A stretch of DNA of 63,035 nucleotides, counting the filler, from Methanobacteriota archaeon (GTDB taxonomy: Archaea; JACRDV01), in NCBI GenBank assembly GCA_024860865.1. It is 4 parts of 4 records of this genome, joined end to end, with 100 filler letters (N's around TTAATTAATTAA, not from the genome) between each part and the next. Parts side by side here need not be neighbours in the genome. Positions count along the whole stretch, not along the records: positions 26,494 to 31,482 come from JACRDV010000065.1; 3 more parts are not named here. The stretch is one strand, 5' to 3'. A model generated the notes under the pieces. The model worked only from the letters and a program-made list of their open reading frames with translations. It was not told the origin of the DNA and searched no databases. Of this stretch, positions 1,605-31,482 are shown piece after piece (within the stretch, counting starts at the first letter, position 1; every line of letters begins with the position of its first letter). The translations under genes and the position numbers were made by a program.

Positions 1605-2516
1605 TTACTGGATAGGATAAGTAGGCATACCTGTTTTATCTAAAATTATTTTTGCTATTTCAATTGTTTTATTAATTATGGGTGTAGAGTCAGGTCCAAT
1701 CATAATTATAAATTTCTTGTTTGCCCAAATGGCGTGAATTGCATTACTGAAAAAAAAGCTACCGTAATAAACGTCATATCCATCTATACTAATTTCCCTT
1801 AGGGCACTAAGAGCAGACATATTTTTTACCACTTTTTCTGCTACCTCTGTGGATTTACATTCTAAAATATGAATAAAACCTGTGTTGTTGCTGCTATCCC
1901 TAATTCTAATAAATCTACCATCAGAAATAGTTGTATTTTTACCATATGCTATTGAAATAATTTCATCCATTCTCTCTTTAAACATTGAAACTTGTGTGTA
2001 GGCTCCAATTCCCTCCATTGTTATCCCAGATGGAAGTTCATCTCTAGCAATAACAAAGTCATTAACAGATTCTGGACCTTTCGCTCGCATTGCAACTACT
2101 TTCCTATTCTCAATATGGGTTCGCTTAGTTTGATCTCGATCTGAACCGGCCAATATTATTATTACCTGCCCAGTAACCCAGACGTTTGTCTTAACATACA
2201 TCTTGCGATTACCTCTAGTTCTGAGATAATTTTGTTCATCTGAGAACAAAGCCTGTCTAACGATATCCCCAGTGCCATTGTAAGCGTCCGGTCCACCTAA
2301 AATAATAATAAACTTCTCTGTTTGATAATTAGGAAAGTCTGCAGCTGTTATACGAATGACATCAATTCCTTGATTTCTTAAAAAGCCAAAGAAATCTAAA
2401 GCCATGTTATAATCAATTAGGTTTGATATTACAACAATTTTGGGTGCTGCGGCACTAGTGAGAGATGCGCCACAAAGCAAAAGTAAGGTTAGAGTAACAA
2501 AAACTGATTTTTGCAT
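1605..2516 (-). CDS. Secreted protein with an archaeal surface-protein-type N-terminal domain (SNxID...ILGGPDA)
   Basis: Signal peptide MQKSVFVTLTLLLLCGASLTSAA; start moved to ATG 2516. Confidence 0.65.
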   Translation of the reverse strand: MQKSVFVTLTLLLLCGASLTSAAAPKIVVISNLIDYNMALDFFGFLRNQGIDVIRITAADFPNYQTEKFIIILGGPDAYNGTGDIVRQALFSDEQNYLRTRGNRKMYVKTNVWVTGQVIIILAGSDRDQTKRTHIENRKVVAMRAKGPESVNDFVIARDELPSGITMEGIGAYTQVSMFKERMDEIISIAYGKNTTISDGRFIRIRDSSNNTGFIHILECKSTEVAEKVVKNMSALSALREISIDGYDVYYGSFFFSNAIHAIWANKKFIIMIGPDSTPIINKTIEIAKIILDKTGMPTYPIQ

Positions 2517-2614
2517 AAGAAATAGAATCTTCCCTATTAATATAAATTTTTTTAATTTTAATTGCTTGTCCGACACTAGTCTTAACTAAACTTAAATCGA
2601 TTCGGGATTAAATT

Positions 2615-2950
2615 ATGAATGCAAATTTCAATGGTGATATAGTGGGAAAGAAACCATTATGTTTTAAGCAGTACTCTAAACAATCATTTTTATATCCAGA
2701 AGTATGCGAACTATGCCACATTGTTGATGCATGTGAAAAAGCCGAGATAAATGAAAGAAAAAAGAAGTATCTTGTCGCAAGAGAAAAAGTATTAACAATG
2801 CTATTAGCATTATTTGGAGTCTTAACTTTTCTTCAATATTATCCCATAGCAGTATTTTTAGGGATGTTTGTAATGATGTACTGCTATGTCATGTATAAGA
2901 AAGGTTTGCATGTGAATTGGGAAACTAGCCGCATTAAAATGACTAAATAA
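2615..2950 (+). CDS. Small protein with Cys cluster (C..CxxC..C) and two C-terminal TM helices
   Basis: ORF translation; GGTGA upstream of an internal GTG suggests a start near 2642. Confidence 0.5.
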   Translation: MNANFNGDIVGKKPLCFKQYSKQSFLYPEVCELCHIVDACEKAEINERKKKYLVAREKVLTMLLALFGVLTFLQYYPIAVFLGMFVMMYCYVMYKKGLHVNWETSRIKMTK

Positions 2951-3313: not shown

Positions 3314-4194
3314 TTAGGTAAATTCTTTTACTTTAGAAAGAACGCCAATTAAATCGCTTTTAATTTCATGTTCCCAAATGATTAGTGTTTTATATCCATA
3401 TCTACTAAAAAAATTTTTTCTATCGTTCTCTTCTTCAGCTTTATGGTAGAAATCTCCAAATAATTCGATAACTTTCTTTTGTCCATTGATATTAATGAAA
3501 TCAGGACACTTTCCATTAATTGAGATAGCCCCATCACCTACATATTTGTAAGGCAATCCTTCTTCACAGAGGATATATGAGAAGAATGATTCTAATCTAT
3601 TAGGTTTTTTGTACATCTTTTTCAACATTGTTTTGACAAAATTTTCATTTTTCCACTTTTCATGTAAAGTCTTGGATATTTTTTTCCTTGTTTCTTCTGA
3701 GCGCTTTTTATCTACTTTCTTTTTTGCTAGTTTCGCAACTCTTGAATCAGTTTCCTTGGTCAAACCTTTATTCCAAACTTTAGCAGTTTTATAGTATTCC
3801 TTAATCCACTTCTGCCATTTTTCAACATATTTTCTAACCCTCCCATCAGTTTTCGCAGTCAATCCCTTGTTCCATGGAGGATGGTTTTTACGATATTCTT
3901 TAAGGATTTCATGTAAACCTTTCTTCATAATGGTTAGACGTATCTTCTCTTTTGTCCCTTTAGACATGATTTTACCTTTCTTCTTTCTAGCCATCTTTGC
4001 AATTCTCTCATCCACTTCTTTAGTTAATCCTTTGTTCCAAACAACACGACCTTTAAGTGCTAATGATATCGCTTTTCTATGGTTTTCTGTAAGTTTCTTT
4101 CCTCTATGAGATTTTCTTAATTTTGATTTTATTTCTTCGGCTCTTATCTTACCATAAAACTCATCGTAGGTTCTGTCTTTTCTGGGTATACCAT
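3314..4194 (-). CDS. Free-standing homing-type endonuclease: NUMOD3-like repeats plus C-terminal PD-(D/E)xK/Vsr-like domain; frameshift after codon 4
   Basis: Three WNKGLT repeats, SEETRKKIS, CPDF...VIELFGDFYH...LIIWEHE. Frame is open to about 4220, but the RBS-linked ATG at 4194 is one base out of frame. Confidence 0.8.
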
Positions 4195-4753: not shown

Positions 4754-5463
4754 TTTTTCACGCAATGTTTAGCTAGCTCGCATTTCGCGCATTTATTTTT
4801 CCTACAAAAATCTTTTCCAAGCCTCAGTAATGCCGCCTCAAAATCGGCAAAACTTTTGCCTTTGATTTCATTTGTTCTCCAGAATTCTTGTAACTCTAAA
4901 AGTATTCGCGCGCGTTCAATTTGTGTTTTGCCAGGTAGTTTAGTAAGTCCAAGATTGCGCGCTGTAAGAATGACTAACTCTTGTGGAAGTGGATTTGCTT
5001 TCTTCCAAATTCCTCTCAACTCACGAAGAAAAATATTAACAGTAACGTCTCCAATCCCCTTTCCCAAACCCTTGAGTTTCTTTTCTAAGTCAATTGAATT
5101 GATTGCTATATTATGAAGTTTATTTAAATCACCGTTATAATTTTCTTTAAGGTTTTTCATAACTTCGAGCAATTTGTCCGCAGTTTTAAAATCAAGTCTT
5201 ACATAAGAGCCTCTGTCTAATGTCTCGACTAATTTATCCCAACCAGCTTTGATAATTTTCTCAGCATTTAAAAGACCTTCTTTTCTGAATTCATGATAAG
5301 TTTTAAAGCAGATTATCTCTGGCATAGGAGCTCCGAACAAAATTGACGCTAGAAACCATTTAAAAATCTCAACAGAGCTCGTTTTCTTTAAATTAATCTC
5401 TAACTGAGCTGAAAAACAAGTTCCAAATTTTTGCATTAGGAGATTAAATGCCGCTTTTTTCAT
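4750..5463 (-). CDS. HhH-GPD/endonuclease III-like protein with C-terminal 4-Cys cluster
   Basis: HhH motif LGKGIGDVTVNIFLRE; CRKNKCAKCELAKHC. Confidence 0.75.
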   Translation of the reverse strand: MKKAAFNLLMQKFGTCFSAQLEINLKKTSSVEIFKWFLASILFGAPMPEIICFKTYHEFRKEGLLNAEKIIKAGWDKLVETLDRGSYVRLDFKTADKLLEVMKNLKENYNGDLNKLHNIAINSIDLEKKLKGLGKGIGDVTVNIFLRELRGIWKKANPLPQELVILTARNLGLTKLPGKTQIERARILLELQEFWRTNEIKGKSFADFEAALLRLGKDFCRKNKCAKCELAKHCVKK

Positions 5464-7488: not shown

Positions 7489-7929
7489 TCAAATAATCCA
7501 TTTTATAGCTTCCTTAAATTTCCGTGTTGTGTTTTTTAGTTCGTTTCCGAGACGTACAAATGGAGCAGAAACCGCTTCCACATATCTAGATGTTATGGTT
7601 AAACCAAGACCTACTCCCATCATTGCTACGCCTGTTTTCACTGACCATAAACCAGCTACGGCACCTACGGGACCTAAAGCCATCATCCCAATACCTACTA
7701 CTGTGAGCGCAATACCAATTGCCATTCCCAAACTGCTACGCTGTATTATCGTTTCAGCATTTTTTTCTTGCTTCGGCAAGGCTTCATTTCCGTGCACAAC
7801 AGGTTTATTGGATTGAACGGATGCTATGAATACTGGTTTTAAAACAGTAGTTTCTGCAGATCTGACACCAGTTGTTTTTGTATTGGCATAGGTACCTGGA
7901 GCTTTTGACTGTATTTTGCCAAATTCCAA
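7489..7929 (-). CDS. Orphan alternative C-terminal tip of the 1423-aa secreted protein
   Basis: QSKAPGTYANTK...AETT...HGNEALPKQE matches the carrier, then a different Gly-rich hydrophobic hairpin; no signal peptide. Confidence 0.8.
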   Translation of the reverse strand: MEFGKIQSKAPGTYANTKTTGVRSAETTVLKPVFIASVQSNKPVVHGNEALPKQEKNAETIIQRSSLGMAIGIALTVVGIGMMALGPVGAVAGLWSVKTGVAMMGVGLGLTITSRYVEAVSAPFVRLGNELKNTTRKFKEAIKWII

Positions 7930-7960
7930 GGAGACGCCTCCTTCACTAAATCAGAAAATT

Positions 7961-8296
7961 TTAACGACCTATTTGTTTATGCTTTTTGATTACCTCAATT
8001 GATAAAAACAAACCTCCTATAGCCATAAGCAACCAAGCTAATATTTCAGAGAATATTGAAATAGTTGAATAACCAAAATAAAAAACAACATCAGCCGGAG
8101 TAAACATTAAAATACCGACAGAAAAAATCAGTAATCCTCTGAAAACATTTTTGGTTAGCCTTTTATCAAGTAGGGTGTATAAAAATATGCTAAAAAATAA
8201 AAAAATTGAAAGCAAAATGAATGAACTAAATATAAAAGCCAAGATAAGACCAACATAAGCAATTAAAAGTGAAATAATTTGAAAAAACTTTATCAT
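7961..8296 (-). CDS. 4-TM membrane protein, candidate immunity protein; homolog of the N-half of 12114-12803
   Basis: Shared LDKxLT and PxD...FGYxTxSxFxE motifs; starts 8 nt after the tip stop. Confidence 0.75.
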   Translation of the reverse strand: MIKFFQIISLLIAYVGLILAFIFSSFILLSIFLFFSIFLYTLLDKRLTKNVFRGLLIFSVGILMFTPADVVFYFGYSTISIFSEILAWLLMAIGGLFLSIEVIKKHKQIGR

Positions 8297-12113: not shown

Positions 12114-12803
12114 TTAGGACTTGTAGGCTTTCCAAGTAAAAAATAATGTGAGTGCTAAAAAGATAGCGCATAACATTAATAAACTTAATAAAACAATTGC
12201 TGGCAAGAGAATACCTAGAGCGATAAAAATTCCTCCTGAACAAAAAAATATGCCAAAAGAAATACAAGCATACTTTGTATGTGGTTTCTCATAGGTGAAA
12301 TACATCCTAAACCAAAATACACCGAGTAATATAACAAAAATTCCTACGGTTCTTCCTCCACCAAATATCTCAGGGAAGATATCTCCAAAAAATAAAAGTA
12401 ACAAAAATAAAGTTATAGCGTATATAAGAAATACATATAAAAGTTTATAAAAATGTTTTTTAGTCGAATACCACCTAATCATTTCATTAGTTAATACATA
12501 CAAGCAAATGGAAAAAACTGTATATGAAGAAACTTCAAAAAATTTTGAAAGAGTTAGATAACCAAAATGATTAGAAATATCATAAGGCACTAAGAGTAAG
12601 AAAAAAAAAGACAAAATTATAAATGACCAAAACATACCAGATGTAAGCGATTTATCTAAAATACTGAGTAAAAATATTGCCAAAAAAACAAAAAGAAAAA
12701 GAAAACTTAAAGAGAATGGATATTCAAGAATAAATTCGAAAACATAGAAAATAATAATTCCAATGGTCATGAGTAATAATGGAATGAATTTAAATAACTT
12801 CAT
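12114..12803 (-). CDS. Multi-pass membrane protein (about 8 TM), candidate cognate immunity protein
   Basis: Starts 8 nt after the carrier stop; N-half homologous to 7961-8296. Confidence 0.75.
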   Translation of the reverse strand: MKLFKFIPLLLMTIGIIIFYVFEFILEYPFSLSFLFLFVFLAIFLLSILDKSLTSGMFWSFIILSFFFLLLVPYDISNHFGYLTLSKFFEVSSYTVFSICLYVLTNEMIRWYSTKKHFYKLLYVFLIYAITLFLLLLFFGDIFPEIFGGGRTVGIFVILLGVFWFRMYFTYEKPHTKYACISFGIFFCSGGIFIALGILLPAIVLLSLLMLCAIFLALTLFFTWKAYKS

Positions 12804-26493: not shown

Positions 26494-26715
26494 AAAGAAA
26501 TAGATTCCCAAGGCCGATTTACTATACCTGCGAAATGGCGTGAAAAGGCTATTAAAGACTCGAAGGAAGTAATTGTATTAATGTATCCAAATTATCTGAA
26601 GATTCTGCCAAAAAAGCAAGTGAGCTTAACTAAATACTTTGATAAAATAAAAATAGAAAATATTGAAGACTTAACTGATTACCGTCGGGTTAGAAAGGCA
26701 ATAAGAAAAATTTGA
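26494..26715 (+). CDS. AbrB-type antitoxin, 5' truncated by the contig edge
   Basis: KEIDSQGRFTIPAKWRE. Confidence 0.8.
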   Translation, partial: KEIDSQGRFTIPAKWREKAIKDSKEVIVLMYPNYLKILPKKQVSLTKYFDKIKIENIEDLTDYRRVRKAIRKI

Positions 26716-26723
26716 GGCAGAAA

Positions 26724-27143
26724 ATGCGCTTTTTGGATGCCAATGTTTTTATTCATGCTTTTTTAAAAATTGGAAGGACTCTTAGGGCTGAGGAAAAAGA
26801 AATAAAGCAGAATGCGAAAAAAATTGTTGAAAGGATAGATAAAGGCGAAGAGGTACTAACTTCGGTTATCCATTTTAGTGAAATTGCCAATTTTTTAGAA
26901 GATTGGTTGCCTCTAGAAGAAGCGTTAGAAATAGAGTATGGAATTCTATCTAAGAAAAACATTGAAATAATACCGATTGCTAGAGAAGGCTATTATTTTG
27001 CATATGACTTAGCGATGGAAAAGAAGATAGGACTCAATGATGCATTAGCAGTTTATATTATGCAAAAAAGGGGTTTATTTGAAATTTATTCCTTTGATAA
27101 AGACTTTGATAGAATTAAAAGCATACAAAGAATAACTATTTGA
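26724..27143 (+). CDS. vapC: VapC/PIN toxin
   Basis: FLDANVF, LNDALA, YSFDKDFD. Confidence 0.92.
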   Translation: MRFLDANVFIHAFLKIGRTLRAEEKEIKQNAKKIVERIDKGEEVLTSVIHFSEIANFLEDWLPLEEALEIEYGILSKKNIEIIPIAREGYYFAYDLAMEKKIGLNDALAVYIMQKRGLFEIYSFDKDFDRIKSIQRITI

Positions 27144-27359
27144 CCTTAAGAAAGAATTCTTGTAACTATTTAGCCATTGGAAGTGAATTCAGCATCAAAA
27201 TGCATTAGATCGCCAAATTGACTATTGCTAAACTTGCAGCAAAGGTATTGCTTCATTTAAAGTCCTTAAATTAGCCAGCAGATACAATAAAATCAACTTC
27301 ATATAGCTAAATAGTTACAAATTCTTATTGACACATAAATTAATGGATGGAGAGTCCCC

Positions 27360-27956
27360 ATGGGATTGCGAAGATTTTTCATCACTGGTTTAGTTGTTTT
27401 TATCCCATTAGTGGCAACAATATACATCTTGTGGCTCTCATTTAATTTCCTCGATGGACTATTAAGACCTTTTGTAAAATTAATTGTAGGGAGAGAGATT
27501 CCAGGCTTAGGCATACTCGTTACACTTCTGCTCATTTTGATCGTTGGTGCATTTACAACAATTGCAGTTGGAAGAAAGGCAGTTGAAATATTCGAAAAAT
27601 ACTTGTTAAAAATCCCCGTAGTTAAGTGGATATATTCCTCTATAAAACAGGTTAGTGAAGTACTTCTCATGCAAAAGACGACTGGTTTTAAAACAGTAGT
27701 GCTTGTACAGTTTCCAAGAGAGGGCTCATATGCTATAGGACTTACCAGTGGAGCAACTGTTCAAGAGATACAAGACAAAACGAAAGAGCATGTGATCAAC
27801 GTTTTTATACCTACTACGCCGAATCCGACTTCTGGCTTTTTTATAATGGTCCCAGAAAAGGATGTTATACAACTTGATTTAACGGTTGAGGACGCCTTTC
27901 GATTGATCTTATCAGGCGGTTTTACACAACTTCCGTCAAGAGAGACCAAATCGTGA
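27360..27956 (+). CDS. DUF502 membrane protein
   Basis: FITGL..PL..T, IPVVKWIY, VFIPTTPNPTSGF. Confidence 0.93.
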   Translation: MGLRRFFITGLVVFIPLVATIYILWLSFNFLDGLLRPFVKLIVGREIPGLGILVTLLLILIVGAFTTIAVGRKAVEIFEKYLLKIPVVKWIYSSIKQVSEVLLMQKTTGFKTVVLVQFPREGSYAIGLTSGATVQEIQDKTKEHVINVFIPTTPNPTSGFFIMVPEKDVIQLDLTVEDAFRLILSGGFTQLPSRETKS

Positions 27957-28006
27957 CTATTAAAAACTATTTTCGCATCGGTCCAAAAAGTTGTATCCTG
28001 CTATCC

Positions 28007-28672
28007 TTAAAAACTAATTAGATACGGCAAAATTCTTTCCAAATTCTTCTCCTTTATTGCAATATTTGTTTCTTTTTGAACTTCAGGTGGAGCATTAAAT
28101 GCAATGCTAAGGCCCGCCTCTTTGAACATGCATATGTTGCTTGAATCATCGCCTATTGCTGCACAATCCTTTATCGGGATTCCCTCTGCCTTTGCAATAT
28201 TGAGAAGAGCATCTCTTTTGCAAACGGAGTATTTTTTACAGTAGGGAAGTTCATAAGAGCATCTTTTCATGGATATATTTCCGGTTAAGACTCCATCTAA
28301 CACTTCGAGTTCATTCGCAATTATGTGATCTAATCCTAAAATCCTTTGAAGGCGCTCAGCAACTAAAGTATAACTGATGCTTACAAGAGCGAGTTTGTAG
28401 CCAACTTCTTTTAGCTTTTGTAACGTTTCAACTGCTTTTGGCATTAAAGGAACTGTTTCTGCAACCTTTTTAACTTCTTCAGCACGCAGACCTTTTAAGA
28501 GCCTCGCAACTGCTTGAGTCTCTTTATATTTCTCGGAAAATTTCCCTTTAAGTTCTAAAAACTGCTTCTCAAATTCAAAAGCTCTGGCCAAAGCGATAAT
28601 AGTTCGACCATCTAAAAGTGTATTGTCCATATCAAAAATAGCTAATTTAAATTTCGCCTGTTTCACTGACAA
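28007..28672 (-). CDS. HAD-IB (SerB-like) phosphatase
   Basis: FDMDNTL, IGDDSSN, AGLSIAFNA. Confidence 0.88.
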   Translation of the reverse strand: MSVKQAKFKLAIFDMDNTLLDGRTIIALARAFEFEKQFLELKGKFSEKYKETQAVARLLKGLRAEEVKKVAETVPLMPKAVETLQKLKEVGYKLALVSISYTLVAERLQRILGLDHIIANELEVLDGVLTGNISMKRCSYELPYCKKYSVCKRDALLNIAKAEGIPIKDCAAIGDDSSNICMFKEAGLSIAFNAPPEVQKETNIAIKEKNLERILPYLISF

Positions 28673-29378
28673 TACCTTCGGCCAATAAGCGGAACTCAGG
28701 TTTTATTAATCTTCCGTATTCATGTGCTTTTTGGATTATTGTAGCTGCAACCTGTTTAGCCATCGGGATTAGTTCGTGTAAAGGCTTCATAATGTGGTTT
28801 TTAAAACCTAGATGAACCTCTTTTACTTTGGCCCCCAGCATAAAGGCATCTATTAGAAGGGCAACATCAATGCCCCAGTCTTCTACAAATTTAATCTTTT
28901 CAAAAAAACTCTTTTTTCCCGCAAACTCACCGCTGAGTGGCTGTGAGAATTTTAGTTCTGGAAAAAGTAGCTCTAAGAGAGGTTTAGCTGTAAGCTCTGT
29001 GACTCTGCCTGCTTTTCTCTCAAAGGTACCTTTAACAAAGTCATAATCCTCATATAGGATTGGTTTGGCAAGCAAGTTGATGAATTTAGGGGTAATATTC
29101 ATTATATCCGCATCAAGGAAGACTACAATATTTCCCTTAGCCTCTCTCACACCCGTTTGAAGGGCTACCCCTTTTCCAGGGTACATCCTTTTTTCCTGAA
29201 GTATGACTCGGGCTCCAGCCCTTTCAGCTTCTTTGATGGTATTATCTGAGGAGTAACCATCGACAACTATAACCTCGGTAACGTAATGAATGCCCTTAGC
29301 TACCCCAATCACTTTGCCTATTGTTTCTTCTTCCTCGTATGCCGGTATAACTACAGTTACCTCTTCCATTTTTGGCAC
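28647..29378 (-). CDS. gpgS: GT-A glycosyltransferase, glucosyl-3-phosphoglycerate synthase-like
   Basis: GKG.AL, FLDAD, GRVTELTAKPLL, QPLSGEFA, WGIDVALLID. Confidence 0.75.
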   Translation of the reverse strand: MPKMEEVTVVIPAYEEEETIGKVIGVAKGIHYVTEVIVVDGYSSDNTIKEAERAGARVILQEKRMYPGKGVALQTGVREAKGNIVVFLDADIMNITPKFINLLAKPILYEDYDFVKGTFERKAGRVTELTAKPLLELLFPELKFSQPLSGEFAGKKSFFEKIKFVEDWGIDVALLIDAFMLGAKVKEVHLGFKNHIMKPLHELIPMAKQVAATIIQKAHEYGRLIKPEFRLLAEGIVSETGEI

Positions 29379-29627
29379 AAAAAATTTAAGACTAAATTTA
29401 TTTTATATGTAATAATATAAAAAATTTTTCATCAGATAAATAAAAGATTAATTGATTAAAAAATTTTGTCTGACAAAAAAAATGGATATAATATGATAAA
29501 TTCGATTAAAATTTAAATCCATTGGAAAGTGTATAGAAGAAGGAAAAGCGATGCCCTTAGAGCATTTTATACTTGAAAAAGATTAAATGGAACAAAATAA
29601 GAAATTTTTTAACAAAACAATGATTTT

Positions 29628-29954
29628 TCATTTAAAACCATGAAGCTCTTTGAAAAATCTTTTAATGGCTTTAGTGAGTTCGTTATCCATGTTTAATAAG
29701 TACAATTTCATTCTTCCAATTTCCCGCTCGTTGATTACTTTTCTCTTGACTAAAGACTCGATTGCTTTGATAACTCCGGTCGGCGAAATTTTAGCCTTTT
29801 TTGCCAATTCAAGCTCATAAAACTCTTTTTCAGGGTTTGAAATCAATGTGTGCAGAATTCTAATCTTACTTTTCGATCCAACCAATTCTTCGATCATCTT
29901 TGTTTCGCTGTTCTTAGGCGCTCGCATAGTTCCCCTCTTATTGGTCTTCTTCAA
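29628..29954 (-). CDS. Winged-HTH protein
   Basis: GSKSKIRIL...ELAKKAKIS...IGRMKLY. Confidence 0.75.
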   Translation of the reverse strand: MKKTNKRGTMRAPKNSETKMIEELVGSKSKIRILHTLISNPEKEFYELELAKKAKISPTGVIKAIESLVKRKVINEREIGRMKLYLLNMDNELTKAIKRFFKELHGFK

Positions 29955-30189
29955 CAGTAACCCCTCATATTAATATTTTTAACTAAAGTTTAGGTGTTTA
30001 AACAAATAATAAAGTTAAGTTTATTTTGCCTTTTTTAGGGATTTGAAGCCATTTTATAGGATTTAAATTAGCGTAAGTTTATAGGAAATTATTTTTCAGA
30101 AATCTTAATAATTAAGAACTGAACAGCAGGTGTCCAAAATTTTATAGTGAGTAACGAAAATATTATTAAAAATGATCTAAGTGGGCCCA

Positions 30190-30367
30190 GGGCCCGTAAG
30201 CGGAATCTTCCGCCGGGATGCTCAGCTTGGTTAGAGCGTCCGAGGAAATAACTCCGGCGAAGCTCATAACCGGATGGTCAGTTGGATGAACTGAGCTCAG
30301 AGGCTTCTATTGGCTTGAGCAGACTCATCCTCCCTAAAAACCGGTTCAAATCCGGTCGGGCCCACCA
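30190..30367 (+). tRNA. tRNA-Ile2(CAT) with three introns: 30199-30219 (9/10), 30243-30261 (30/31), 30280-30339 (48/49); CCA encoded
   Basis: The spliced 78-nt product folds as a complete cloverleaf and every junction lies in a BHB. A GGGCCCG acceptor stem favours Ile2 over Met. Confidence 0.88.
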
Positions 30368-30485
30368 GTTTTGAATACACGTAAGCGAGCAACTTATCAT
30401 TTATGAAATCGTTAAATCTACGGCAAAAGATTTTAAACCTAATAAAAGGAATTATTTCTAGTGCTCCGGTCAGCCGGGCGCTGCT

Positions 30486-30651
30486 GCTCCAGGTTCGACA
30501 AGAATCGGCAAAGGTAGTCTAGCCCGGTCAAAACTCTCAGTTGCCGGTAGGATTTCGGCCTTAACAGGTTAGTTTTTCTAATCTATGGCCAATCGAGCCG
30601 GAGACACGGGTTCAAAGGAGAAATTCTCTGAAAATCCCGTCCGGAGCACCA
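30486..30651 (+). tRNA. tRNA-Glu(TTC) with four introns: 30491-30512 (5/6), 30531-30548 (20b/21), 30563-30592 (34/35), 30617-30634 (59/60); CCA encoded
   Basis: Spliced 78-nt product GCTCCGGTAGTCTAGCCCGGTCAAGGATTTCGGCCTTTCGAGCCGGAGACACGGGTTCAAATCCCGTCCGGAGCACCA; four BHB motifs. Confidence 0.92.
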
Positions 30652-30704
30652 CTATTTTTGAGAAATTACTTTAAATGAAAGCAAACTTATTGTTTTATAT
30701 CGTT

Positions 30705-30819
30705 GCGGGGGTGTTCCGAGCGGTCAAAGGAGCTGGAGGTTTGCACTCAGGTGTAGATCGGCGAAGCTTAGGACCCAGTGGGCGTAGGCCCTTCCAGGGT
30801 TCAAATCCCTGCCCCCGCA
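30705..30819 (+). tRNA. tRNA-Leu(TAG) with one intron, 30737-30765 (30/31)
   Basis: GCGGGGG/CCCCCGC acceptor, long variable arm, BHB with one A.G mismatch. Confidence 0.9.
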
Positions 30820-30883
30820 CTATTTTTACTTCTTTTTAGAAAATAAGCTCAAATTGCGTATATGATAGAAAAATAATGGTAAA

Positions 30884-31303
30884 TTATTCACTTTTCAATA
30901 TCTCTGCCATTTCAGCAGCTGTTACAATCTTTATTCCTTTATATTCCCGCAGGTTCAGGAGATGCTTGTCCCTGGAGACTATATAGTCTGCTTTTCCCTC
31001 CACAGCGCATTCGATTACCATGTTATCACTTAGGTCAGCTTGAATCACATCCAGCTTTATCCGAGGATTAATGATTCGGGACATGGAATATATCTTGTTC
31101 ATGATCACTTTCACGGTCTGACCAGATCTTTCAATTATAGGCTTCAGCTTTTAGTCTTCCAGGACCTCTTCTACCTCCTCTAAAATGCCCACTGAAAGTA
31201 AGAGTTCGCCTTCTCCAGAGTCAATTCTTTCTAGGAGTTCTGATGGTTTTCCCTTCCAAAGAAACCCTGAAACAATGACGTTAGTGTCAAGGACAATCCT
31301 CAT
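30884..31303 (-). pseudogene. PIN-domain toxin with an in-frame TAA at 31151-31153
   Basis: MRIVLDTNV...VLED*KLKP...DNMVIECAVEGKADYIVS. Confidence 0.88.
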
Positions 31304-31482
31304 TTCCCAGCCCTTGTCTTTCTTATTAACTCCTCCAGGTCCGCTTCTTTAAATCCCGCCTTTTTAATCTCCCTTTGGATGGGAGCAGCTATCTCCTTAA
31401 AAGTCTTCTCAAGGGCCGTCCTCTCTATCTTCTTAAAAAGGATAGTATCATCTTTTCCAAAGACCAGAAATCTATCGGAAGG
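31300..31482 (-). CDS. AbrB-type antitoxin, 5' truncated by the contig edge
   Basis: FLVFGKDDTILFKKI...; stop overlaps the PIN start; similar to 21857-22120. Confidence 0.8.
   Translation of the reverse strand, partial: PSDRFLVFGKDDTILFKKIERTALEKTFKEIAAPIQREIKKAGFKEADLEELIRKTRAGK

Follow-up and report, generated by a model that had tools for sequence, protein, structure and literature searches.

The subject of this analysis is a tRNA gene at positions 30190–30367 of a 63,035-nt stretch of archaeal DNA (the window), which consists of four contigs of one metagenome-assembled genome joined end to end. With high confidence we read it as a functional gene for a tRNA with the anticodon CAU, interrupted by three bulge-helix-bulge (BHB) introns, and as one case of a genome-wide intron load that would be processed by a single alpha-type splicing endonuclease, EndA. 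Whether the architecture of EndA enables the spread of tRNA introns or merely accompanies it has been debated since 2005. This genome is a clean test case, in which one small, readily expressed enzyme of the 'narrow' type meets natural substrates that range from textbook to relaxed BHBs, an example of the latter being the third intron of this gene. In the feature lines below, a BHB is described by its central 4-bp helix H, its two 3-nt bulges and its outer helices h and h'.

30190–30367, plus strand: tRNA(CAU) gene, probably tRNA-Ile2, with an encoded CCA at 30365–30367 (best solution of our solver; ARAGORN on the spliced product)
30190–30198, 30220–30242, 30262–30279 and 30340–30364, plus strand: exons of tRNA(CAU) (solver parse)
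30199–30219, plus strand: intron 1, 21 nt, position 9/10, strict hBHBh' (H CCCG/CGGG 4/4, h 3, h' 5)
30243–30261, plus strand: intron 2, 19 nt, position 30/31, strict hBHBh' (H CGTC/GGCG 4/4, h 3, h' 3)
30280–30339, plus strand: intron 3, 60 nt, position 48/49, relaxed BHB (H ATGG/CTAA 3/4, with an A.A mismatch)

The gene was parsed with our own solver, which is anchored on the discriminator base only, runs backward through the T arm, variable loop, anticodon arm, D arm and acceptor, and skips candidate introns able to form a BHB. Its best solution recovered the same three introns at 9/10, 30/31 and 48/49 that a preliminary description of the window had proposed. The same description had pointed to the mismatch in the central helix of the third BHB and to a 6-bp outer helix h (AACCGG/CCGGTT), and both were confirmed; h' of this intron (GGATGA/TCATCC) lies past a 2x2 internal loop. 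Its count of eight introns in the cluster of three tRNA genes (3 + 4 + 1), with none at 37/38, was likewise correct. After removal of the three introns, all stems of tRNA(CAU) are paired (7/7, 4/4, 5/5 and 5/5), and the product keeps U8, A14, the GG of the D loop, U33, a standard T loop and the encoded CCA. ARAGORN calls this spliced product tRNA-Met(cat). On the genomic sequence neither ARAGORN nor Rfam at its gathering score reported any tRNA in the whole window, and a permissive Rfam search over 30100–30900 gave one sub-threshold T-arm match, to the third gene of the cluster, a tRNA-Leu.

For the shuffle control the T arm and acceptor were kept and the upstream 150 nt were shuffled, with 150 shuffles per gene. 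None of the 150 reached the real score of tRNA(CAU) (47 versus a maximum of 45), and the same was true of the adjacent tRNA-Glu (0/150; 49 versus a maximum of 38, with 145 shuffles giving no solution). A lone BHB is weak evidence, because strict candidates number 511,469 genome-wide on both strands. The weight of the evidence for tRNA(CAU) rests on the restoration of the cloverleaf and on a comparison of strains.

No RNA run is among those listed as carrying this stretch. The strain comparison was possible with contigs of runs X2, X3 and X4, from three other metagenome studies, which carry the same cluster, mostly at 90–95% likeness per piece. Across the three genes the exons differ at 0 of 242 nt, whereas the introns carry seven substitutions and four indel events in 217 nt (Fisher p 0.005, or 0.0002 with indels counted); the other strain differences are confined to leaders and spacers. 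Changes in intron hairpin loops lie at 30205, the sole difference in intron 1, at 30247, the difference in intron 2, and at 30499, 30501 and 30750. At 30585, an A>G change turns a C.A mismatch into a pair in h' of the tRNA-Glu intron at 34/35. The related strain also lacks a 26-nt middle part of intron 3, with both ends (H, h' and the bulges) kept. The tRNA(CAU) gene and its three introns are real.

The genome measures 1.54 Mb in 160 contigs (here numbered with the prefix C), with a GC content of 36.5%, an estimated completeness of 92.45% and an estimated contamination of 0.73%. The tRNA cluster lies on contig C11 (4,989 bp, window positions 26494–31482), whose GC content is 37.2% (genome 5–95% range 34.4–38.7%). 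A search of the genome's own phylum in the species set of GTDB r232 returned only the genome itself, and all 40 'relatives' share only the domain with it. As the sole member of its phylum in this set, the genome cannot be placed in the Thermoproteota, the Asgardarchaeota or the DPANN phyla, each of which holds many species. With the cluster DNA as query, no homologous cluster was found among the GTDB relatives, and the matches were merely of the size of a T arm and acceptor.

We then extended the analysis to the whole tRNA set. The inventory was anchored on T arms that were intact or were restored by taking out one strict BHB; five genes came out under relaxed settings or through manual parsing, and the initiator was located manually. 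The intron mode of ARAGORN, run on the whole genome, was rejected, as it gave many wrong anticodons, assigning Stop, SeC and Pro to what are genes for Asn, Lys, Asp and Leu. In total, 35 tRNA genes were parsed, of which four are uninterrupted and 31 are interrupted by 53 introns (1.51 per gene), 33 of them ectopic, i.e. outside 37/38. About nine in ten tRNA genes are interrupted, mostly at non-canonical sites. ARAGORN called the spliced products with the expected anticodon for all 34 solver-parsed genes, and it called the spliced initiator too. Three parses score just 45–46, a level also met by 2 of 150 shuffles.

The 50 introns outside the initiator gene divide into 19 at 37/38 and 31 at 16 other positions, among which 30/31 (5), 59/60 (5), 18/19 (3) and 32/33 (3) recur. 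Classed by our own BHB criteria, they comprise 22 strict hBHBh', 7 HBh', 5 hBH, 13 with three of four central pairs and 3 poor motifs; since the solver favours BHB quality, these class counts are a biased sample. Fourteen of the 33 ectopic introns are not strict (12/31, plus the initiator intron at 30/31 and one further relaxed call), intron 3 of tRNA(CAU) being one of them. Ectopic introns at 30/31, 32/33, 5/6, 34/35 and 23/24 all begin with A and finish with AA. Isoacceptors share features as well: tRNA-Glu(UUC) and tRNA-Glu(CUC), the latter on C104, have the positions 5/6 and 34/35 and similar intron ends in common, tRNA-Gln(UUG) and tRNA-Gln(CUG) share 18/19, and an identical 12-nt intron occurs in both tRNA-Arg(UCG) and tRNA-Arg(CCG). 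Intron lengths range from 12 to 60 nt, with two long introns of 239 and 284 nt in addition. The 284-nt intron has a strict BHB and lies at 37/38 of tRNA-Lys(UUU) (C100:3974–4331); the 239-nt intron, also with a strict BHB, is at 59/60 of tRNA-Tyr (C147 minus strand, 12223–12535 in reverse-complement coordinates).

Twelve expected anticodons were not found in the inventory: Ala UGC, Arg GCG and UCU, Cys, His, Ile GAU, Leu GAG and CAG, Lys CUU, Pro UGG, Ser CGA and Trp. One tRNA 5' half ends at the edge of contig C73. With all three tRNA genes of the window missed by standard tools, and roughly one in three expected anticodons not located, inferences on completeness or codon usage that are based on tRNAs are unreliable for such lineages.

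We next turned to the enzyme. The genome holds a single EndA gene, on C51, which encodes 182 aa with a PF02778 (N-terminal) and a PF01974 (C-terminal) domain. The best single-domain match in the PDB is the alpha4 enzyme of M. jannaschii, 1A79, with 117 bits over the full length. The two proteins are collinear over residues 16–182 with no insert of more than two residues, and Y119, H128 and K158 align with the Tyr-His-Lys triad region of 1A79. At the Crenarchaea-specific loop (L1), which lies in the N-terminal domain and bears a conserved Lys, EndA has gaps of 9 and 10 residues relative to the A. pernix and S. tokodaii alpha subunits (3P1Z_B and 2CV8_A). For L2, the ARMAN-2-type loop at the same site of the structure, the two 3-residue inserts of the ARMAN-2 enzyme (4FZ2) are missing. 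At the L3 site the spacing between Tyr and His is 8 residues, compared with 9 in 1A79, while inserts at this site occur in 4FZ2 (5 residues) and in 10 of the 79 named homologues (6–7 residues; Aenigmatarchaeota, Nanohaloarchaea and others). We defined L3 as in PMC3488258; Figure 7 and the supplements of PMC5829648 may define L3 in Hadesarchaea differently. By its sequence, EndA is a single alpha-type unit without any loop so far linked to broad specificity, and it probably forms a homotetramer.

Pfam, own-protein and profile searches did not find a second EndA-like open reading frame (ORF) in the 92.45%-complete assembly. Pfam gave one match to PF01974 and, for PF02778, a second match only at E 0.16 in a 21-aa frame. 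The EndA protein matched its own genome once. A profile of the 79 homologues, searched with hmmsearch --max against 8,073 six-frame ORFs, had its next-best match at E 0.12, to an ORF aligning over 48 residues only. As a positive control, the EndA query detects known beta subunits (NEQ261 at E 3.8e-8 and the M. kandleri beta subunit at 62 bits).

In a search of 5.8 billion clustered proteins, EndA showed at most 53% identity to every relative. The nearest named ones belong to the Hadarchaeales (51–52%), followed by Woesearchaeota (43–45%). The EndA gene adjoins that of the tryptophanyl-tRNA synthetase (TrpRS; C51:10376–13630), and the sole named contig with the same neighbourhood is from Hadarchaeum, whose EndA is likewise without an insert at the L3 site. 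With EndA at 51–52% and the TrpRS pair at 34% identity, the sequences suggest that the lineage link to Hadarchaeales is distant. In that Hadarchaeum genome, 35 tRNA matches to Rfam reach E ≤0.01 (34 above the family cut-off), and ten of them measure 72–75 nt; the present genome has only four uninterrupted genes among 35.

The preliminary description had proposed a massive invasion of the tRNA genes by introns and had expected a heteromeric (alpha-beta)2 or an epsilon2 EndA to go with it. The invasion is borne out by the 53 introns in 31 of 35 genes: the genome, alone in its phylum within the GTDB set, does not belong to an already known intron-rich lineage, and its other tRNA genes are not intron-poor. 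The expectation on the enzyme failed, as no beta gene was found and the 182-aa protein is no three-unit fusion of ~390 aa. An 'unusual EndA' holds only in the opposite sense, in that its plainness is unusual for an enzyme with such tRNA genes to serve; a broad-specificity architecture was not found.

In the part of Kaneta et al. (2018) available to us, alpha4-type EndAs with L3 are reported from DPANN and Hadesarchaea, alongside raised tRNA disruption, and specificity is held to be driven by loops rather than by subunit type (PMC5829648). The loop explanation fails here, because L1, L2 and L3 are all missing by sequence. Strict BHBs at ectopic sites require no broad specificity. One of three explanations holds: the plain enzyme is more tolerant than the model has it, the assembly lacks a partner, or better motifs than those we scored arise through sequential splicing and alternative folds. 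The initiator tRNA-Met has introns at 7/8 (strict), 30/31 and 37/38, and the intron at 37/38 acquires its outer helix only once the one at 30/31 is removed; by our own reading of the sequence, the same holds for the 37/38 intron of tRNA-Arg(UCG). The initiator gene itself (C119:1872–2037), with A1-U72 and GGG/CCC in the anticodon stem, was missed by all automatic steps.

The genome has three CAU tRNAs, which is the full archaeal set: one of initiator type (C119), a second of elongator type (C25), and the tRNA of 30190–30367, which has G1-C72 and is without GGG/CCC in its anticodon stem. The anticodon arm of the latter presumably resembles that of Ile2 tRNAs. From this resemblance and by elimination, tRNA(CAU) is most likely the tRNA-Ile2 that reads AUA. 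Queried with the 18 nt of exon 3, metagenomes gave 80 listed loci, of which 72 carry the 18-mer in uninterrupted CAU tRNAs of other organisms and the remaining eight are cut or unrelated; an interrupted relative is absent among the matches listed, and the Ile2 identity is left unsettled by this search. The genome also encodes TiaS (PF08489 match at E 7.8e-42 in a 440-aa frame on C98) and RtcB (on C15). In the mechanism that we propose, each exon-intron pair of the precursor would fold into a 4-bp helix flanked by two 3-nt bulges, EndA would cut in both bulges, the RtcB ligase would then join the exons, and TiaS would subsequently modify C34. We infer both the occurrence of splicing and the order of the cuts from the gene sequences. 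The RtcB match (C15:16–1342) is split in two, with profile positions 1–26 at the contig start, in a frame that contains a single in-frame TGA, and positions 25–426 in a 411-aa frame, which may reflect a frameshift, recoding or a contig-end artefact.

Several points weigh against the reading of 30190–30367 as a three-intron tRNA-Ile2 gene served by one alpha-type enzyme. The shuffle margin of the gene is thin (47 versus 45). Its assignment to Ile2 rather than Met depends on the presumed resemblance of the anticodon arm and on elimination, tRNA-Ile(GAU) was not found for comparison in the parsed inventory, and this inventory is incomplete by 12 anticodons. By our own criteria 30 of the 53 introns fall short of a strict hBHBh' (28/50 plus two of the three initiator introns), and according to the published model, in the available parts of PMC5829648 and PMC3488258, alpha4-type enzymes cut only strict BHBs. 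As for intron 3, its central helix pairs at 3/4 only, and two strict BHBs, 30280–30330 (H 4/4, h 2, h' 3) and 30288–30339 (H 4/4, h 5), have one cut site apiece in common with the 60-nt parse. Forced folds of the two readings are nearly isoenergetic (-25.9 versus -25.4 kcal/mol). The third intervening sequence might thus not be excised as a single 60-nt intron: both overlapping BHBs might be cut (one at 30279/80 and 30330/31, the other at 30287/88 and 30339/40), or cutting might start with the strict 51-nt BHB, with the leftover 9 nt removed from a bulge-helix-loop or retained as a long variable loop. We regard this as unlikely. The central helices of the two strict candidates cross and so cannot coexist, and a stemless variable region of 12–14 nt is no known form of class I tRNA. 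Moreover, the minimum free energy fold of 30268–30350 reproduces precisely the two outer helices, h and h', that belong to the 60-nt reading, 6 bp each, flanking a symmetric 10x10 loop that is able to accommodate a weak central helix. We kept the 60-nt parse because it is the only removal that gives the 5-nt variable loop of class I, and from the need for such a loop the exact 3' site of intron 3 would be 30339|30340.

A different objection concerns the enzyme. With an assembly of 160 contigs that is only 92.45% complete, a structural beta subunit or a second EndA could lie in the unassembled ~8%, making the enzyme a loop-less (alpha-beta)2 like that of M. kandleri. The M. kandleri fusion is the top PDB match by total score, with both its beta and alpha parts aligning, and heteromeric enzymes are described as usual in intron-rich lineages in the available part of PMC5829648. 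We give this explanation little credence, given that three kinds of search returned no second EndA from the assembly, that beta subunits are detectable with this query yet none was found, and that the best single-domain match is an alpha4 enzyme. It is still far less probable that the gene is a decaying pseudogene or that its contig was mis-binned from another organism. C11 is indeed short, short contigs being those most often mis-binned, and standard finders fail to call the gene. However, its exons are constant between strains while its introns vary, its stems and conserved bases are all intact, and similar interrupted tRNA genes occur on 23 contigs. The GC content of C11 is typical for the genome, the contamination estimate is low, and we found no alternative gene for the third CAU tRNA, although TiaS is encoded. 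We therefore retain the reading of a functional CAU tRNA gene with three BHB introns, probably served by a lone alpha-type EndA.

A second peculiarity of this tRNA set lies upstream of certain genes. All four genes whose first intron falls in the acceptor 5' strand, namely tRNA-Thr(GGU) (3/4), tRNA-Glu(UUC) (5/6), tRNA-Glu(CUC) (5/6) and the initiator (7/8), have an uninterrupted copy of mature nt 1–9 in the leader, 22–25 nt upstream. In this order the copies match at 8/9, 8/9, 7/9 and 8/9 positions (shuffle p 0 to 0.015), whereas none of the remaining 31 genes reaches 8/9 and one reaches 7/9. The copies are located as follows.

30462–30470, plus strand: leader copy of tRNA-Glu(UUC), mature positions -1 to 8, 23 nt 5' of nt 1
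C25, upstream of 5793: leader copy
C104, minus strand, upstream of 4419 (reverse-complement coordinates): leader copy
C119, 1847–1854: leader copy

In tRNA-Glu(UUC), tRNA-Glu(CUC) and the initiator, the copy includes exactly the six nt that precede the splice site, which gives two possible 5' splice sites with one common 3' site, the distal BHB being the poorer one. The same test did not return a distal copy of the six nt for tRNA-Thr(GGU). The leader copies may be remnants of an event in which part of the gene's 5' end was duplicated, supplying a second 5' splice site and so giving rise to the intron, or they may act as a surrogate acceptor strand of the precursor. In the available part of the latest census, the route of intron arrival remains open (bioRxiv 10.64898/2026.10.13.758758), and on the origin of introns the leader copies offer a concrete clue that can be checked. 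In our own reading, the initiator leader also contains an 8-nt stretch equal to spliced positions 27–34.

Taken together, we tentatively suggest that a loop-less alpha-type EndA, alone or with a helper, may splice relaxed and ectopic introns across the tRNA set of a phylum outside TACK, Asgard and DPANN, and that the leader copies may be footprints of intron origin or a surrogate acceptor strand; we hold this broader proposal to be possible rather than probable. If true, it breaks the accepted link of EndA architecture and loops with intron diversity.

The two other tRNA genes of the cluster lie downstream of tRNA(CAU).

30486–30651, plus strand (body 30486–30648): tRNA-Glu(UUC), four strict BHB introns, encoded CCA (solver, shuffle control)
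30491–30512 (5/6), 30531–30548 (20b/21), 30563–30592 (34/35) and 30617–30634 (59/60), plus strand: introns of tRNA-Glu(UUC)
30705–30819, plus strand: tRNA-Leu(UAG), one intron at 30737–30765, position 30/31 (H 3/4, h 3, h' 9) (solver, ARAGORN)

The tRNA-Glu gene thus has one intron more than tRNA(CAU). At the end of the cluster on C11, window positions 30697–30820 are identical to the first 124 nt of contig C66 (C66:1–124). The assembly is broken within or next to the tRNA-Leu gene, and C11 and C66 probably join.

Some further tRNA-like sequences were noted elsewhere in the genome. A probable tRNA-Sec lies on the minus strand of C124 at ~7857–7975 (reverse-complement coordinates) and has the anticodon UCA, a 9-bp acceptor, a long variable arm and G73; by eye only, it has two further introns, one of 17 nt at 59/60. 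A class II tRNA with the anticodon UAA (Leu codon; C35 minus strand, 654–762 in reverse-complement coordinates) has G73 and a D arm like that of the genome's Ser tRNAs, and a second UAA tRNA, on C104, is Leu-like with A73. The tRNA on C35 may be a candidate for mischarging or reassignment, or a mis-parse. In addition, we found six orphan tRNA 3' fragments that consist of a T arm and acceptor strand, some with CCA, and have no 5' half.

C77 ~4015–4042, C83 ~152–180 and C43 ~2610–2635, plus strand: orphan 3' fragments
C16 ~2445–2485, C87 ~4866–4893 and C81 ~2376–2403, minus strand (reverse-complement coordinates): orphan 3' fragments

In the fragment on C16, the first 20 nt of an Arg-like tRNA are fused directly to the T arm. 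Split tRNAs were considered as an explanation for the six and rejected, as matching 5' halves with a D arm were not found. The preliminary description had also suggested that the introns might mask viral integration sites or anticodon-nuclease targets, an idea for which we saw no support. Among 14 ORFs flanking four of the six fragments an integrase domain is absent; the domains encoded beside these four are PfkB, PIN, MazE, SDR, TauE and metallo-beta-lactamase.

Finally, we compared this genome with known systems. In the Thermoproteales, too, BHB introns occupy many non-canonical positions, with as many as three in one gene and ~1.5 per gene, and isoacceptors have intron positions in common. 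For P. calidifontis the available part of the census gives 1.54 per gene (bioRxiv 10.64898/2026.10.13.758758). Their enzyme, in contrast, is an (alpha-beta)2 EndA with the Crenarchaea-specific loop, whereas here one alpha unit has a gap at this loop, and the present lineage is outside the Thermoproteota. In Asgard archaea, too, most genes are interrupted, many introns sit in the D arm and escape standard tools, and the junctions are enriched in BHBs. The load there is heavier, with 2.2 intervening sequences per gene in some families and up to five in one gene according to the same part of the census, and according to Kaneta et al. the L1 loop is present in all of TACK and Asgard (PMC5829648), while our EndA has none and the genome lies outside the Asgardarchaeota.

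DPANN and Hadesarchaea share with this genome a single-gene alpha-type EndA alongside many ectopic and multiple introns. They differ in the L3 loop of their enzymes, described in the available part of PMC3488258 as an enlarged basic loop that carries the catalytic His; both EndA of this genome and that of Hadarchaeum are without an insert there. The introns of M. jannaschii are few and canonical. Its EndA (1A79) is of the same length class (a 171-aa chain versus 182 aa) and has the same two domains and a conserved catalytic triad, and the parts of PMC3488258 and PMC5829648 available to us report that it accepts strict BHBs only; here an enzyme of the same kind is confronted with 33 ectopic introns, of which 14 fail our own criteria for strictness. 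The (alpha-beta)2 EndA of M. kandleri (5X89), the best PDB match by summed score, likewise has a loop-less catalytic unit but possesses a beta subunit and, according to the available part of PMC5829648, a 'constrained' specificity, whereas our searches of this assembly turned up no beta gene. tRNA genes with several introns are already established in Thermoproteales, ARMAN/DPANN and Asgard archaea, and three or four introns per gene are not new in kind. What is new is the combination of lineage and enzyme, together with the copies of the mature 5' end in the leaders.

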